Of a stretch of 64,000 nucleotides of DNA, positions 3,128 through 61,274 are shown one piece after another (the stretch's first letter is position 1; every line of letters begins with the position of its first letter). The translations under genes were made by a program, and so were the position numbers. The stretch is taken from NCBI RefSeq assembly GCF_054482525.1, contig NZ_CM137006.1. The stretch is one strand, 5' to 3'. The notes below the pieces were generated by a model. It saw nothing but the letters and a program-made list of their open reading frames with translations, did not search any database and was not told where the DNA came from.

Positions 3128-3790
3128 ATGGATTATACGCTCACCCGCATAGATCCCAACGGTGAGAACGACCGTTACCCCCTGCAAAAGCAGGAGATCG
3201 TAACCGACCCTCTGGAGCAAGAAGTTAACAAAAACGTGTTTATGGGCAAGCTCAATGACATGGTTAACTGGGGTCGTAAAAACTCAATTTGGCCGTATAA
3301 CTTCGGTCTTTCCTGCTGTTACGTTGAGATGGTGACTTCGTTTACCGCGGTGCATGACGTGGCGCGTTTTGGCGCAGAAGTATTGCGTGCTTCGCCGCGT
3401 CAGGCTGACCTGATGGTGGTGGCAGGAACCTGCTTTACCAAAATGGCACCGGTTATTCAGCGTCTGTATGACCAGATGCTGGAACCAAAATGGGTTATCT
3501 CAATGGGTGCCTGTGCCAACTCTGGCGGTATGTACGATATTTATTCCGTTGTGCAGGGCGTCGATAAATTCATCCCGGTTGATGTGTATATCCCGGGCTG
3601 CCCGCCGCGTCCTGAAGCGTACATGCAGGCACTGATGCTGTTGCAGGAATCTATCGGCAAAGAACGTCGTCCGCTCTCCTGGGTGGTTGGCGATCAGGGC
3701 GTTTATCGCGCCAATATGCAATCAGAGCGCGAACGCAAGCGCGGTGAACGCATTGCCGTAACCAACCTGCGTACACCTGACGAGATTTAA
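3128..3790 (+). CDS. nuoB: NADH:quinone oxidoreductase subunit B
   Basis: 220 aa, cysteine-containing Fe-S subunit sequence (CCYVEM ... GCPP). Confidence 0.95.
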
Positions 3791-3883
3791 TTTGCGCCTG
3801 TCGGCAAAGGGATTTTTCTTCGCTTATTCCTAAATCTATTTCGCGAAGCTTACTGCGCCGACAGTCACCACGGACCATTTGCA

Positions 3884-5686
3884 ATGGTGAACAATATGAC
3901 CGACTTAACCGCGCAAGAACCCGCCTGGCAGACCCGCGATCATCTTGATGATCCGGTGATTGGCGAACTGCGCAACCGTTTTGGGCCGGATGCCTTTACT
4001 GTTCAGGCGACTCGCACCGGGGTTCCCGTTGTGTGGATCAAGCGTGAACAATTACTGGAAGTGGCCGATTTCTTAAAGAAACTGCCGAAACCTTACGTCA
4101 TGCTGTTTGACTTACACGGCATGGACGAACGTCTGCGCACACACCGCGAAGGGTTACCTGCCGCGGATTTTTCCGTTTTCTACCATCTGATTTCTATCGA
4201 TCGTAACCGCGACATCATGCTGAAGGTGGCGCTGGCAGAAAACGATCTGCACGTACCGACCTTCACCAAACTGTTCCCGAACGCTAACTGGTATGAGCGT
4301 GAAACCTGGGATCTGTTTGGCATTACTTTCGACGGTCACCCGAACCTGCGCCGCATCATGATGCCGCAAACCTGGAAAGGTCACCCGCTGCGTAAAGATT
4401 ACCCGGCGCGCGCTACCGAATTCTCGCCGTTTGAGCTGACCAAAGCCAAACAGGATCTGGAAATGGAAGCCCTGACCTTCAAACCGGAAGAGTGGGGGAT
4501 GAAGCGCGGCACCGAAAACGAGGACTTCATGTTCCTCAACCTCGGTCCGAACCACCCGTCGGCGCACGGGGCTTTCCGTATCGTTTTACAACTCGATGGC
4601 GAAGAGATTGTCGACTGCGTACCAGACATCGGTTACCACCACCGTGGTGCAGAGAAAATGGGCGAACGCCAGTCCTGGCACAGCTACATTCCTTATACCG
4701 ACCGTATCGAATACCTCGGCGGCTGCGTTAACGAAATGCCTTACGTGCTGGCGGTAGAGAAACTGGCCGGGATCACCGTGCCGGATCGCGTTAACGTCAT
4801 TCGCGTAATGCTCTCCGAACTGTTCCGCATCAACAGCCACCTGCTGTATATCTCGACCTTTATTCAGGACGTCGGCGCGATGACGCCAGTGTTCTTCGCC
4901 TTTACCGATCGTCAGAAAATTTACGATCTGGTGGAAGCAATCACTGGTTTTCGTATGCACCCGGCGTGGTTCCGTATTGGCGGCGTAGCGCACGACCTGC
5001 CGCGTGGCTGGGATCGCCTGCTGCGTGAGTTTCTCGACTGGATGCCGAAACGTCTGGCGTCTTACGAGAAAGCGGCGCTGCAAAACACCATTCTGAAAGG
5101 TCGTTCCCAGGGCGTTGCCGCCTATGGCGCGAAAGAGGCGCTGGAGTGGGGCACCACCGGCGCGGGCCTGCGTGCTACCGGGATCGACTTCGACGTGCGT
5201 AAGGCGCGTCCTTATTCTGGCTATGAAAACTTCGACTTTGAAATCCCGGTTGGTGGTGGTGTTTCTGACTGCTACACCCGCGTAATGCTGAAAGTGGAAG
5301 AGCTGCGCCAGAGTCTGCGCATTCTTGAGCAGTGCCTCAACAACATGCCGGAAGGCCCGTTCAAAGCGGATCACCCGCTGACCACGCCGCCGCCGAAAGA
5401 GCGCACGCTGCAACATATCGAAACCCTGATCACCCACTTCCTGCAAGTGTCGTGGGGTCCGGTGATGCCTGCCAATGAATCCTTCCAGATGATTGAGGCG
5501 ACCAAAGGGATCAACAGTTACTACCTGACCAGCGACGGTAGCACCATGAGTTATCGCACTCGTATCCGCACGCCGAGTTATGCGCATTTGCAGCAAATTC
5601 CGGCGGCGATCCGCGGCAGCTTGGTGTCTGACCTGATTGTTTATCTGGGCAGTATCGATTTTGTTATGTCAGATGTGGACCGCTAA
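3884..5686 (+). CDS. nuoC: NADH:quinone oxidoreductase fused subunit C/D
   Basis: 600-aa ORF; an alternative ATG at 3896 gives MTDLTAQEP (596 aa); fused C/D subunit typical of E. coli. Confidence 0.93.
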
Positions 5687-52805: not shown

Positions 52806-53882
52806 ATGAAATTGACGCTGAAAAACCTTAGCATGGCGATCATGATGAGTGGAATGATCATGGGAAGCAGTGCAATGGCGGCGGACAGCAACGAAAAAAT
52901 AGTCATCGCCCATCGCGGTGCCAGTGGATATTTGCCGGAGCATACGCTGCCAGCAAAAGCGATGGCGTATGCGCAGGGAGCGGATTATCTGGAACAAGAT
53001 TTGGTGATGACCAAAGACGACCATCTGGTTGTCCTGCATGACCATTATCTCGATCGTGTTACTGATGTTGCCGATCGTTTCCCGGATCGGGCGCGCAAAG
53101 ACGGTCGTTACTACGCGATAGATTTCACGCTCGATGAAATTAAGTCACTGAAATTTACCGAAGGTTTCGATATTGAAAATGGTAAGAAAGTACAGACTTA
53201 TCCGGGGCGTTTCCCGATGGGTAAATCTGACTTCCGGGTACACACTTTCGAGGAAGAGATTGAATTTGTTCAGGGGTTAAATCACTCTACCGGGAAAAAT
53301 ATCGGTATCTATCCAGAAATTAAAGCGCCGTGGTTCCATCATCAGGAAGGGAAGGATATTGCGGCTAAAACGCTGGAAGTGCTGAAGAAATATGGTTACA
53401 GCGGTAAGGACGACAAAGTTTATTTGCAATGTTTTGATGCCGATGAACTGAAGCGTATTAAGAATGAGCTGGAACCTAAAATGGGCATGGACCTCAATCT
53501 GGTACAGCTGATTGCCTATACCGACTGGAACGAAACTCAGCAGAAACAGCCGGACGGAAGCTGGGTTAATTACAACTACGACTGGATGTTTAAGCCGGGG
53601 GCCATGAAACAGGTGGCGGAATATGCTGATGGTATTGGTCCGGATTATCATATGTTGATTGAGGAGACATCGCAGCCAGGTAATATCAAACTCACTGGCA
53701 TGGTGCAAGATGCTCAGCAGAATAAACTGGTAGTGCATCCTTACACCGTGCGGTCAGATAAGCTGCCTGAATACACTACTGATGTGAATCAGTTATATGA
53801 TGCTCTGTATAACAAAGCGGGTGTAAATGGGCTGTTTACTGATTTCCCTGATAAGGCAGTAAAATTCCTTAATAAAGAGTAA
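52806..53882 (+). CDS. glpQ: Periplasmic glycerophosphodiester phosphodiesterase GlpQ
   Basis: ATG at 52806 gives MKLTLKNLSMAIMMSGMIMGSSAMA signal peptide, 358 aa, HRGASGYLPEHT motif. Confidence 0.93.
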   Translation: MKLTLKNLSMAIMMSGMIMGSSAMAADSNEKIVIAHRGASGYLPEHTLPAKAMAYAQGADYLEQDLVMTKDDHLVVLHDHYLDRVTDVADRFPDRARKDGRYYAIDFTLDEIKSLKFTEGFDIENGKKVQTYPGRFPMGKSDFRVHTFEEEIEFVQGLNHSTGKNIGIYPEIKAPWFHHQEGKDIAAKTLEVLKKYGYSGKDDKVYLQCFDADELKRIKNELEPKMGMDLNLVQLIAYTDWNETQQKQPDGSWVNYNYDWMFKPGAMKQVAEYADGIGPDYHMLIEETSQPGNIKLTGMVQDAQQNKLVVHPYTVRSDKLPEYTTDVNQLYDALYNKAGVNGLFTDFPDKAVKFLNKE

Positions 53883-54102
53883 TGCTATTGCAGGATGGCG
53901 TTCATGCGCCATCCTCTGCTAAAACGAAATAATGCTACTACCGGTTATTCTTTTCATTAACCGGTGCATCCTGTTAAAAAAGATGCCAACATATTTGCGT
54001 AAAACTCATTCGTTAAGAAAGCTAACACTGGGCATTGTTATTCCTTAAACAGTATGAATTGGGTTCAATAATAAATTGTATTGCAGTTTATACTGTAAAG
54101 TA

Positions 54103-55173
54103 TTATTCGCATTTCGGAAAAGTAAAGAAAATATTAATGTATCTTATTAATTTATTATATTGTTCTTGAGTGAATGCTATTTGCACACCTTCAGGATAAT
54201 ATTCACCAGTAATAACCAGTTGTCCATTGCTGTGTTGTACCATTAAACCTTTTTTTTCCTTTGGATCTTCAAACTTAGAATTATCAAACGTGAAGATGTT
54301 ATTTTCCTGTTTTGAGTAAGCAAAGAAATCTCGTGTATAGCTGAAACTATCATTTATTAATGGTGCTAACTTTTTGTCGGCGATATCGATAAGCTCACCA
54401 CTTAATTTATTGATGTATTTCATTTGGTTCAATTTTTTCTGCGCTTGTACAATTTGCTTGTAGGTATTTTTAATTTCCTTAGAAGAATTCTTGAATTTAT
54501 CATAGCGTTCCACGGAGGATGCGTATTTGTACCATTCTGTATTTTTCTCAGAATGTAGTAGCAGGTCTGTATATTTTTTTTGATCGCTGTAAAGTTGACT
54601 TTTAATACTTTCCTCACTGCTGGTTTTATAAGGTTTATCAGAGCTGTTTATTTTTGAAATGTCTTTTTCTGTCGGTGACTGGACCGTGTTGTGGATATTT
54701 TCTTTTATAACATGTTCATTGATGATGTTAATTGCAGTTTCATATTCATTTAAGTTTATTGTTCTTTGTGAAATAAACCCTTCTTTGCTTTCGACACTCA
54801 AAATACCTTCGTTGTTTTCACCTCGGGTAAAGGTAAGGGTATAGGGTTCATAATCCGCTGCAAATTCATTTTTATACGTTATGACATGTTCGACAAAATG
54901 TCTTATTGGTACGAAACTATAACTGTGAACGTCAATTTTTTGGGTCTTGATACTATCAATTGCATCTGAGGCTTTCGTGAAAAAAGTCAATAAATTAGCT
55001 ATGCTGTCTGCTGAGGTTGATAACCCGTATCTACTTTGAGATATTTTTAGAAACTCATCGCAAAAAATCTCAAGTTTCGCGGTTTGTTGTGATTCTTTGT
55101 AAACTTCTGCTGGTTGCAATTTATTATTTTGTAAAATATTACCTCGAGATAAGTGAATAGATGTATTTGGCAT
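54103..55173 (-). CDS. Hypothetical protein, about 356 aa, low GC, no recognisable domain (orphan accessory gene)
   Basis: Long uninterrupted ORF in a clearly AT-rich segment; ATG at 55171..55173 preceded by AAGGAA at 7-8 nt spacing (the ORF track starts 12 codons earlier on a TTG); Lys/Ser/Asn/Glu-rich, no signal peptide or TM segments; I recall no K-12 gene at this position. Confidence 0.65.
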   Translation of the reverse strand: MPNTSIHLSRGNILQNNKLQPAEVYKESQQTAKLEIFCDEFLKISQSRYGLSTSADSIANLLTFFTKASDAIDSIKTQKIDVHSYSFVPIRHFVEHVITYKNEFAADYEPYTLTFTRGENNEGILSVESKEGFISQRTINLNEYETAINIINEHVIKENIHNTVQSPTEKDISKINSSDKPYKTSSEESIKSQLYSDQKKYTDLLLHSEKNTEWYKYASSVERYDKFKNSSKEIKNTYKQIVQAQKKLNQMKYINKLSGELIDIADKKLAPLINDSFSYTRDFFAYSKQENNIFTFDNSKFEDPKEKKGLMVQHSNGQLVITGEYYPEGVQIAFTQEQYNKLIRYINIFFTFPKCE

Positions 55174-55638
55174 AAATGATTCCTTGTATTGTGAGTTAAC
55201 AAGATACAATTTAATCTTTGCAGAATATATTCACTATCAAATTTAGCTCATTTTATTACGAAGACCTTTACGCATGTTAGAAAGTATCATTATTGTTAAT
55301 AAATACGGTAATAAGTAACAAACAGATATTGATAACTTCCCTGACAAGTTATTAAGTATCCCACTTGAAGATTGAGAATGGCTCCAGAGTAAACTGTGTA
55401 CTGTTCGCCGGAGTGTCATTACTCTCAACAATCGGTTTTGACAGTGAGTCGGGCGCTTCATACCGGTTTCTACCTGGAGTCATTGTCACTTCTCCCAACT
55501 GGATAAATATATATCGCCAATTCACAAAGTGGGCCAAAATCAGGTGAAAACGAATTATTACGCCAGGTAAAGGCTATAGTACAACTAAGTGTGGCGAATC
55601 AGGCAGTCTTGCATTTGTCATCAATCTCATGTCTTACA

Positions 55639-55845
55639 TCAAATTTTTCCACTCACCACGAGTTGTTCCGTACACGTTTGTAGTAAAAACAGTGGACTGC
55701 CTTCTACCGGCTTTTCTTTAGCCAGCAACGAAATCTGTCGATAGAAGGTTGGTTCGAGAGGAACGGAACACAATTCACCTGCAATGGTTTTCAGCGTCAA
55801 CTCTGGTAATAAGGCGATGCCTAATCCCTGTCGAATAAAATTCAT
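55639..55845 (-). pseudogene. yfaH: YfaH, a LysR-family regulator fragment (C-terminal effector-domain remnant)
   Basis: 68-aa ORF resembling a LysR substrate-binding-domain piece (GLGIALLPELTLK); no helix-turn-helix domain. Confidence 0.65.
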
Positions 55846-56060
55846 CGCTGTATCCGCCTGATTAAATTCACATTTTATCTGCTGGGTGCACTATTAGTGG
55901 TAGTGGCTGGTGGAGTCTATGCGCTGCAAATGAAGGGTAAAAGCGGTGTCGCGCTAGTAGTGGCAAAAGAAATTCATTAATACGACACGTTTCATTAAGA
56001 TTTTTCGCAGGTAACCACCTATAGTCATTGTCGTAAATAAAAAATGACAGGCGATAGGGT

Positions 56061-56711
56061 ATGGCAGTTTCAGCAAAGCACGACGAATTTAATCACTGGT
56101 GGGCAACAGAGGGCGACTGGGTTGAAGAGCCTAACTATCGCCGTAATGGTATGAGCGGGGTGCAATGCGTCGAGCGCAACGGCAAAAAGCTATATGTAAA
56201 GCGCATGACGCATCATCTGTTTCATTCCGTACGTTATCCGTTCGGCCGACCAACGATTGTCCGTGAGGTTGCGGTAATTAAAGAACTGGAACGGGCTGGT
56301 GTCATCGTGCCGAAGATCGTTTTTGGTGAAGCGGTGAAAATTGAGGGGGAATGGCGCGCGTTGCTGGTGACTGAAGATATGGCGGGGTTCATCAGCATTG
56401 CTGACTGGTATGCCCAGCATGCAGTAACGCCCTATTCTGACGAAGTACGGCAAGCCATGTTGAAAGCAGTGGCGCTGGCGTTTAAGAAAATGCATAGCGT
56501 TAATCGTCAGCATGGCTGTTGCTATGTTCGCCATATCTATGTGAAAACAGAAGGTAAGGTAGAAGCTGGATTTCTTGATCTGGAGAAAAGTCGTCGCCGC
56601 TTGCGTCGCGATAAAGCGATTAATCATGACTTCCGCCAGCTGGAAAAATATCTGGAGCCGATCCCCAAAGCGGACTGGGAGCAGGTGAAAGCGTATTACT
56701 ACGCCATGTAA
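56061..56711 (+). CDS. inaA: Acid-inducible Kdo/WaaP-family kinase-like protein InaA
   Basis: 216 aa, MAVSAKHDEFNHWWATEGDWVEEPNYRRNGMSGVQ. Confidence 0.9.
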   Translation: MAVSAKHDEFNHWWATEGDWVEEPNYRRNGMSGVQCVERNGKKLYVKRMTHHLFHSVRYPFGRPTIVREVAVIKELERAGVIVPKIVFGEAVKIEGEWRALLVTEDMAGFISIADWYAQHAVTPYSDEVRQAMLKAVALAFKKMHSVNRQHGCCYVRHIYVKTEGKVEAGFLDLEKSRRRLRRDKAINHDFRQLEKYLEPIPKADWEQVKAYYYAM

Positions 56712-60580: not shown

Positions 60581-60760
60581 GTATGTCGTACCTGTTTTTG
60601 GAATTCTTCCGCAATAGTTTCATGCAGACTACCTGTAGTGAGGGAAGCTGCTTAGAACACTATATATAGGGGGTATGTTTGGGATTCACTGCAAGATAGT
60701 GTGAAAATGGCCCTCTTGCAAGTGCATAACTTTGTGGATAACTCAGGAAGGAAAAAGTGG
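60581..60760 (-). promoter_or_regulatory. nrdAB promoter region with putative NrdR boxes and a DnaA box
   Basis: TTATCCACA (minus strand, 60733..60741) matches the DnaA box consensus; ACACTATATATAGGGG (about 60657..60672) resembles the palindromic NrdR box; regulation of nrdAB by DnaA and NrdR is established, site calls are by eye. Confidence 0.55.
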
Positions 60761-61274
60761 CTTTCGCGCACCTTAGGTCAGACAAGGTGTCCGGGAAAGT
60801 CAATGGGAGGAGAAAAATTTGTTAAAAATAACTGTTCGGCGATTTCTTGAACGGAAGAATAGGTTAGATAAATTGATGTAGATGGTTTATTAATCTTTTG
60901 GCTAATGATTGCAAAAATTGATCTAAGCACGAGTCATCACATAATCTGATGTATCAGTTATGGTCAATATATAAGCGAATGTAAGCGGTTGTTGATGTCG
61001 AAATGGTTGTTTTCTCTTCGGTTGTTGTTAAATGAGAAGCCATTTTGTTAATTTACCTTATATTATAAGAAAATTATTCATTACTTTAATTCAGTTTAAA
61101 CATAACTGATATCCCTTAAGGTGATTAACTTGAATTATGACGCACTGATATTATTCATGAAATAATAACAAAATAGCCATTGCACCGGGTTGAACAATTT
61201 ACAAAAGAAAAATAACCCATATCGTATAATGCGATTAAATATGCCGTCTTATAGAAAATGATGGTCAGATTAAT

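Follow-up and report, generated by a model that had tools for sequence, protein, structure and literature searches.

An AT-rich islet between glpQ and yfaH of Escherichia coli PCN033, apparently an insertion, carries a weakly constrained orphan gene

The 64,000-nucleotide stretch of contig NZ_CM137006.1 (assembly GCF_054482525.1) considered here, referred to below as the window, is identical (100% identity) to the sequence of E. coli PCN033 (NZ_CP006632.1), a porcine extraintestinal pathogenic E. coli (ExPEC). Between glpQ and the remains of yfaH it contains an islet of low GC content, which an earlier note, made by reading the sequence alone, had described as an AT-rich block set between two backbone genes and carrying one long orphan open reading frame (ORF) on the minus strand. 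The islet and the gene that it carries are as follows.

53916..55630, no strand assigned: inserted AT-rich islet of 1,715 bp, 33.6% GC, delimited by alignments, composition and a tblastn map of outgroup loci.
54103..55173, minus strand: orphan protein gene, 356 aa, with an ATG start; known in strain Sakai as ECs_3123 / NP_311150.1, with O157 allele WP_001301786.1; intact in PCN033.
55181..55185, minus strand: Shine-Dalgarno-like AAGGA, 7 nt before the ATG, read from the sequence.
53890..53919, no strand assigned: glpQ terminator hairpin, present in the empty site between the convergent glpQ and LysR genes, with the insertion directly after it.

The low-GC block is real, having 33.6% GC in a window of 51.1%, and GC content stays at 0.29-0.36 over 53900-55250 while the flanks lie at about 0.5. 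The comparison with flanking genes that the earlier note had asked for was run and the islet deviates here too, with GC at third codon positions (GC3) of 0.30 in the orphan ORF against 0.50-0.65 in the neighbouring genes. In K-12, yfaH lies 41 bp from glpQ, in line with the close spacing given in that note, and the orphan gene is missing; the proposed insertion relative to the K-12 arrangement held when K-12 was aligned to both block ends across the glpQ-yfaH interval, which refined the boundaries to 53916..55630. The left edge falls directly after the glpQ terminator hairpin and the right edge 8 nt from the stop codon of a LysR-type gene. No target duplication, inverted or other significant repeats, insertion sequence (IS), integrase or other mobility gene was found at the islet. 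A target-site duplication was considered, as a MAFFT alignment hinted that the hairpin recurs in degenerate form at the right edge, and was rejected, the local alignment score being no better than that of shuffles. In its composition and its presence/absence polymorphism the islet fits a horizontally acquired one, though it lacks mobility signatures. Other segments of the window also fall below 0.38 GC, at 19800-21800, 200-900 and 60600-61100; that at 19.8-21.8 kb is probably the elaD region, judged by synteny with Sakai.

The polarity of the difference between genomes can be read from the empty site, which measures approximately 41-48 bp, contains the terminator hairpin and is collinear in K-12, some other E. 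coli, Escherichia whittamii and Escherichia sp. E1V33. When genomes were scanned with the full-length LysR protein of O157, both E. whittamii and E1V33 proved to have the gene order inaA-MFS-LysR-glpQ, with LysR ending 48 bp from glpQ; this junction is collinear with that of K-12, and E. coli C325 is in the same state. Because the junctions of K-12, E. whittamii, E1V33 and C325 are collinear, the block would be an insertion into an ancestral spacer between convergent genes, and the comparison of these loci thus indicates a true insertion rather than a loss by K-12. The opposite polarity, in which the block is ancestral and was deleted in K-12-type genomes, draws on the fact that it occurs in both E. 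coli and the cryptic clade I and on a locus that is clearly prone to deletion: the LysR-MFS pair is gone from K-12 and PCN033, and the whole glpQ-inaA interval from CREC-36. However, the same hairpin-plus-stop-codon architecture is found in the empty sites of K-12, C325, E. whittamii and E1V33, a deletion would need base precision and the composition of the islet is foreign, so that ancestry followed by loss appears improbable. The LysR-MFS pair is older than the islet, being present in Kluyvera and Pseudocitrobacter, and the neighbouring O-island OI-97 is, unlike the islet, ancestral DNA that K-12 has deleted. The possibility that the locus is an integration hotspot with alternative cargo was also considered and rejected, as the other junction states examined are deletions or divergent LysR alleles, with no other insertions among them.

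The earlier note took the gene for a strain-specific acquisition, which did not survive the survey of other genomes. The block is found in 1,052 of 5,426 complete E. coli genomes (19%) and is absent from 81%, a contiguous empty junction being present in 3,152; carriers include O157:H7 and, in cryptic clade I, strain TW10509, where the block occupies the same locus and junction. It is always chromosomal, with a median of one match per genome and second matches rare. Full-length LysR accompanies it in 711 of the 1,052 carriers, LysR-MFS being present in 1,219 genomes overall, and in some genomes everything between glpQ and inaA has been deleted. Among the carriers are isolates of cattle, human, chicken, dog, cat and wild-bird origin. 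The islet is therefore an insertion that is polymorphic in E. coli and clade I, under weak selection and frequently lost. Two database entries that would extend this range probably have more mundane explanations: contig JAIJJM010000334.1, in a metagenome-assembled genome named 'Collinsella sp.', is 98-100% identical to the E. coli locus, which suggests contamination, and the 'plasmid' NZ_CP141089.1 of PLSDB, which carries the orphan gene, is 4.9 Mb long and evidently a chromosome.

The 356-codon frame, whose ribosome-binding site and start are as first read, would be expected by chance in DNA of this composition with P ~7e-13. Nei-Gojobori estimates from seven alleles gave a ratio of nonsynonymous to synonymous rates (dN/dS) of 0.37-0.83, typically ~0.5, for the orphan ORF, as against 0.01-0.15 for glpT, glpQ and inaA in the same strains; the two off-frames of the ORF gave 0.46-1.14, and the in-frame value is below most of these. 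Among the mutations by which the alleles differ, at least 112 in number, there is no nonsense change, where 4.8% would be expected to create a stop (P=0.004). The features within the gene and at its 3' side that bear on its decay and preservation are listed here.

54529..54693, minus strand: hypervariable central segment, approximately codons 161-215, in which the alleles fall into two classes that have diverged deeply.
54574..54581, minus strand: A8 homopolymer, a frameshift hotspot (ORF nt 593-600).
54980..54985, minus strand: T6 homopolymer (ORF nt 189-194); in TW10509 the run is T7, which breaks the gene into two pieces of 70 and 232 aa.
53940..53965, minus strand: inverted repeat ACCGGTTA(n10)TAACCGGT within the islet that may serve the orphan gene as terminator, read from the sequence and without a call in a simple terminator scan.

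In the O157 lineage the A8 run has contracted to A7, and this is offset by an A5 to A6 change 35 nt downstream, with the result that 11 residues are changed and the C-terminal 146 are preserved; a compensated -1/+1 frameshift of this kind marks selection to keep the product at full length. At the sequence level, 14 of the 17 alleles examined are intact, at a nucleotide divergence of up to 6%. The ORF is thus a real gene whose frame is held open by selection, and at the same time one that is weakly constrained in sequence and dispensable. Inactivation has also occurred more than once. An uncompensated frameshift at the A8 run yields a 208-aa truncated product that is the representative of a large protein cluster (P0015), and IS1 interrupts the gene in 6-7 of 30 evenly spaced matches. 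The IS1 copies are secondary insertions and sit at two different positions of the gene in different lineages (3583-4280 of locus L010 and 4477-5174 of locus L011), and in the latter the insertion accompanies a deletion that runs through LysR into the MFS gene. One could take these facts to mean that the gene is a functionless passenger drifting to loss, its open frame a reflection of past selection alone: its dN/dS of ~0.5 is close to the off-frame values, 81% of genomes lack it, and both IS1 and homopolymer slippage have inactivated it repeatedly. We consider this unlikely, as it is hard to square with zero nonsense changes among so many, with a compensating frameshift that rescued the C-terminus and with the predominance of intact alleles.

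The extent of decay has been overstated by annotation. RefSeq/PGAP flags the allele of PCN033, and those of many other genomes, as a 'frameshifted' pseudogene, but in seven further genomes that were sampled, five of them flagged, the 356-codon ORF is intact in all seven. All alleles outside the O157 lineage keep the frame of PCN033, which is the ancestral one; the flag is an artefact, because the reference protein is the O157 allele WP_001301786.1, itself doubly frameshifted and compensated.

Sequence constraint is unevenly spread along the gene. Codons 161-215, which are flanked by conserved domains, differ between the two allele classes with dN of 0.25-0.31 and dS of 0.48-0.74, while dS in the rest of the gene is 0.02-0.14. 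Such a difference implies either a dimorphism of long standing or import from a relative not yet sampled, and the depth of the split argues for an age greater than the present distribution suggests. The flanking glpQ gene (52806-53882) also shows unusually deep allelic divergence, with dS reaching 0.22 among E. coli strains and 0.38 between E. coli and clade I; it exceeds that of glpT, inaA and the islet, and indicates a recombination mosaic around the insertion.

The product is a protein of 41 kDa with a pI of 6.5, and every source names it 'hypothetical protein'. The absence of a signal peptide and of transmembrane segments, claimed at the first reading, is borne out, no hydrophobic N-terminus or transmembrane-like segment having been found (maximum Kyte-Doolittle value 0.73 over 19-residue windows), and the middle of the protein, then described as coiled-coil-like, is predicted to be helical. 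It could not be placed in a family then and it cannot now: Pfam, NCBIfam, PADLOC and PHROGs contain no family that matches it (at E<=1 for the last three), the sole Pfam match, Val_tRNA-synt_C at E=0.2, being counted as none, and a profile search of the PDB gave no match. A word-indexed search of 5.8 billion clusters returned 23 clusters, of which all the named ones are Escherichia coli, at identities of at least 79%, and phmmer against 1.84 billion representative proteins returned fragments of the same gene plus spurious matches, so that both large protein searches yielded Escherichia sequences only. The additional weak protein matches were to a cadherin-repeat protein (P0035), to a 1,381-aa protein in multiple stretches (P0036) and to a copy of this very gene full of errors (P0037). 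No relative was found among phages and plasmids by tblastn or in a scan of viral contigs, the single 'plasmid' match being the mislabelled chromosome mentioned above. As far as these searches reach, the gene appears to be a true lineage-restricted orphan, confined to Escherichia.

AlphaFold2 models are of low confidence, their mean predicted local distance difference test score (pLDDT) being 41.7 over the full length, 47.6 when residues 1-165 were modelled, and below 50 in the helical region. With that caveat, the N-terminal half is predicted to contain helices at 21/22-49 (which the full-length model splits at 30-34), 55-77 and 90-104, strands over 111-140 and a helix at 141-162, and the remainder a linker, long helices over 182-257 and, towards the C-terminus, strands and one last helix. 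The protein is thus soluble and not a membrane protein, and its predicted architecture, at low confidence, runs from a helical N-terminal part through a beta-meander and helix, the hypervariable linker and a long helix to a C-terminal part rich in beta structure. An internal duplication of residues 104-165 and 282-356 was considered and dropped (BLASTP E=12).

Two ideas about function had been raised in the earlier note, neither of which gained support. The first, that the protein is a HEPN-type RNase working on its own in abortive infection or defence, was drawn from an Rx4H motif, and the protein indeed contains a single instance, R91-HFVE-H96, with a polar residue after the Arg. It is invariant across all alleles and falls at the start of predicted helix 90-104, after the predicted helices 21/22-49 and 55-77, resembling in this and in the helical N-terminal region the HEPN RNases of defence and toxin-antitoxin systems; presence/absence polymorphism, AT-richness and fast evolution are also typical of defence genes. 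Shuffles of the protein, however, contain Rx4H in 17% of cases, Rx4-6H in 42% and R[NHDKQ]x3H in 5%, and the conservation of R91 and H96 is non-specific, because almost the whole surrounding segment is invariant. The orphan also differs from HEPN RNases in lacking profile similarity (no HEPN family in Pfam at E<=10, with PADLOC and NCBIfam empty), a partner or antitoxin-like gene, a defence-island context (the neighbours are housekeeping genes) and a confident fold; the models are of too low confidence to reveal a HEPN bundle, and Foldseek of the 1-165 model against the PDB retrieved no HEPN protein, the best E being 0.5. The one adjacent candidate for a partner, the 43-codon ORF described below, is unsupported as a gene. 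The N-terminal 160 codons have dN/dS of 0.43-0.88. Taken together, these observations make a HEPN RNase very unlikely.

The second idea, a type III secretion substrate or effector, has N-terminal composition as its sole support: the first 25 residues include one acidic residue and 11 S/T/N/I/Q, and composition by itself is weak evidence. The neighbours are housekeeping genes, with neither a chaperone nor a prophage or effector island close by, and no similarity to any other protein was found, known effectors included. Its carriers are ecologically diverse, comprising porcine ExPEC (PCN033), clade I (TW10509) and isolates from dogs, birds and cattle, and a literature search found no paper mentioning ECs3123. 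In the adjoining OI-97, the phenotype of a z3495 deletion was complemented by z3495 alone (PMC10819331), which was also counted against an effector role for the orphan. An effector is for these reasons extremely improbable.

The DNA upstream of the orphan gene behaves differently from the gene itself and contains two further features.

55174..55630, minus strand: non-coding DNA of the islet upstream of the gene, with very little variation among alleles, presumably holding the promoter and 5' untranslated region.
55352..55483, minus strand: 43-codon ORF (132 nt) preceded by a strong Shine-Dalgarno-like GGGAGAAG; called as a gene in TW10509; candidate coding sequence.

The 465 bp upstream of the gene had been described as AT-rich and as a possible site of a promoter or small RNA. 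The description does not hold throughout, since 55352-55483 has 46% GC and 300-bp windows over 55250-55850 have 38-43%. Mean pairwise diversity is ~0.01 over 55200-55440, whereas most of the ORF has 0.02-0.06 and glpQ has 0.04; 55174-55550 is almost invariant among alleles that are 3-8% apart in the ORF, PCN033 and TW10509, for instance, having 4 differences in ~367 positions. Low diversity (~0.01) spans 55174-55740, thus reaching into the yfaH pseudogene fragment, and is below that of neighbouring essential-pathway genes. It could be supposed that the selected element is this upstream region, as a small RNA, a regulatory site or a 43-aa peptide, and that the large ORF is secondary; its near-invariance is in keeping with this, as are the strong Shine-Dalgarno-like sequence of the 43-codon ORF, which lies in the most conserved and higher-GC (46%) part of the islet, and the gene call in TW10509. 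Yet the yfaH fragment is just as invariant (0.010 at 55680-55739), and because of this the low diversity may reflect recent shared ancestry rather than constraint. The 43-codon ORF has accumulated 2 synonymous and 2 nonsynonymous changes and exists in frameshifted variants (P0041-P0043) and as a fusion with yfaH (P0044). With no Rfam match in the region at E<=1, a folding z of -0.66, which is not significant, and no terminator in a simple scan, the small-RNA suggestion finds no backing, and we judge selection on an upstream element to be very improbable indeed. Esr41 was rejected as a small RNA at this site, as it lies in OI-43. The simple scan also called no consensus sigma-70 site upstream, and sigma-70-like sites over 53800-56100 number 2, as against 8.9 +/- 3.1 in dinucleotide-preserving shuffles, a depletion that is unexpected for AT-rich DNA. 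In strains with an intact LysR gene, read-through from z3495 into the islet may occur, because there is no terminator between the LysR stop codon and the islet.

Considering the locus as a whole, the observations are probably best accounted for by an insertion islet with one accessory gene that is lineage-restricted, weakly constrained, dispensable and mostly silent. AT-rich horizontally acquired genes are targets of xenogeneic silencing by H-NS. Selection would hold the frame open and constrain the sequence weakly, the islet DNA would be bound and largely silenced by H-NS, as is other E. coli DNA of ~33% GC, and the gene, which the cell could do without, would be useful under particular conditions only. 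The islet resembles H-NS-silenced genes in its 33.6% GC within a window of 51%, its patchy distribution, its weak constraint and a ~4-fold higher density of H-NS-motif-like sites in the block than in the window, an enrichment expected from composition. It differs in having fewer sigma-70-like sites than shuffles (2 vs 8.9 +/- 3.1).

Several points weigh against this account. That H-NS probably binds and silences the islet, leaving a conditionally useful gene, is a view derived from its composition. Approximately three quarters of sampled carriers have an intact ORF, an argument that the gene serves some purpose. No donor lineage and no mobility signature were found for the islet. Finally, dS is 0.04-0.14 in the islet, below the 0.06-0.38 of glpQ, so that the history of the islet is mosaic and its age uncertain.

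The accessory islet has clear relatives in kind. It is like the O-islands and S-loops of O157:H7 in being short, absent from K-12, of low GC, placed between conserved backbone genes and occupied by a hypothetical protein. The nearest O-island example is its neighbour OI-97 (z3494-z3495) (PMC10819331). The two adjoin each other and co-occur, as the 711 of 1,052 carriers with full-length LysR illustrate. The gene is also comparable to the ORFans of Enterobacteriaceae, being AT-rich, fast-evolving and without a homologue outside one genus, but it is longer than is typical (356 aa), selection for its open frame is demonstrable and its central segment is deeply dimorphic.

As to what the protein does, a conflict-type function, for instance in defence against phages or mobile elements, is the best single guess, although a distinctly doubtful one. 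A narrower version, in which the protein would be the founding member of an Escherichia-restricted family with such a function, for example a single-gene abortive-infection (Abi) nuclease using R91 and H96 in a highly diverged, helical HEPN-like domain, is less likely still.

The gene is already catalogued, as Sakai ECs_3123, and uncharacterised. What the analysis contributes is a resolved history for the locus, in which the islet was apparently inserted while OI-97 is ancestral and was deleted by K-12, together with the recognition that the 'frameshifted' labels of RefSeq/PGAP fall on alleles in the ancestral frame, that of PCN033 included, and that the HEPN and effector speculations are unsupported. 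If the conflict-type reading were true, the hypervariable, dimorphic linker and the frequent on/off inactivation at homopolymers would reflect an arms race.

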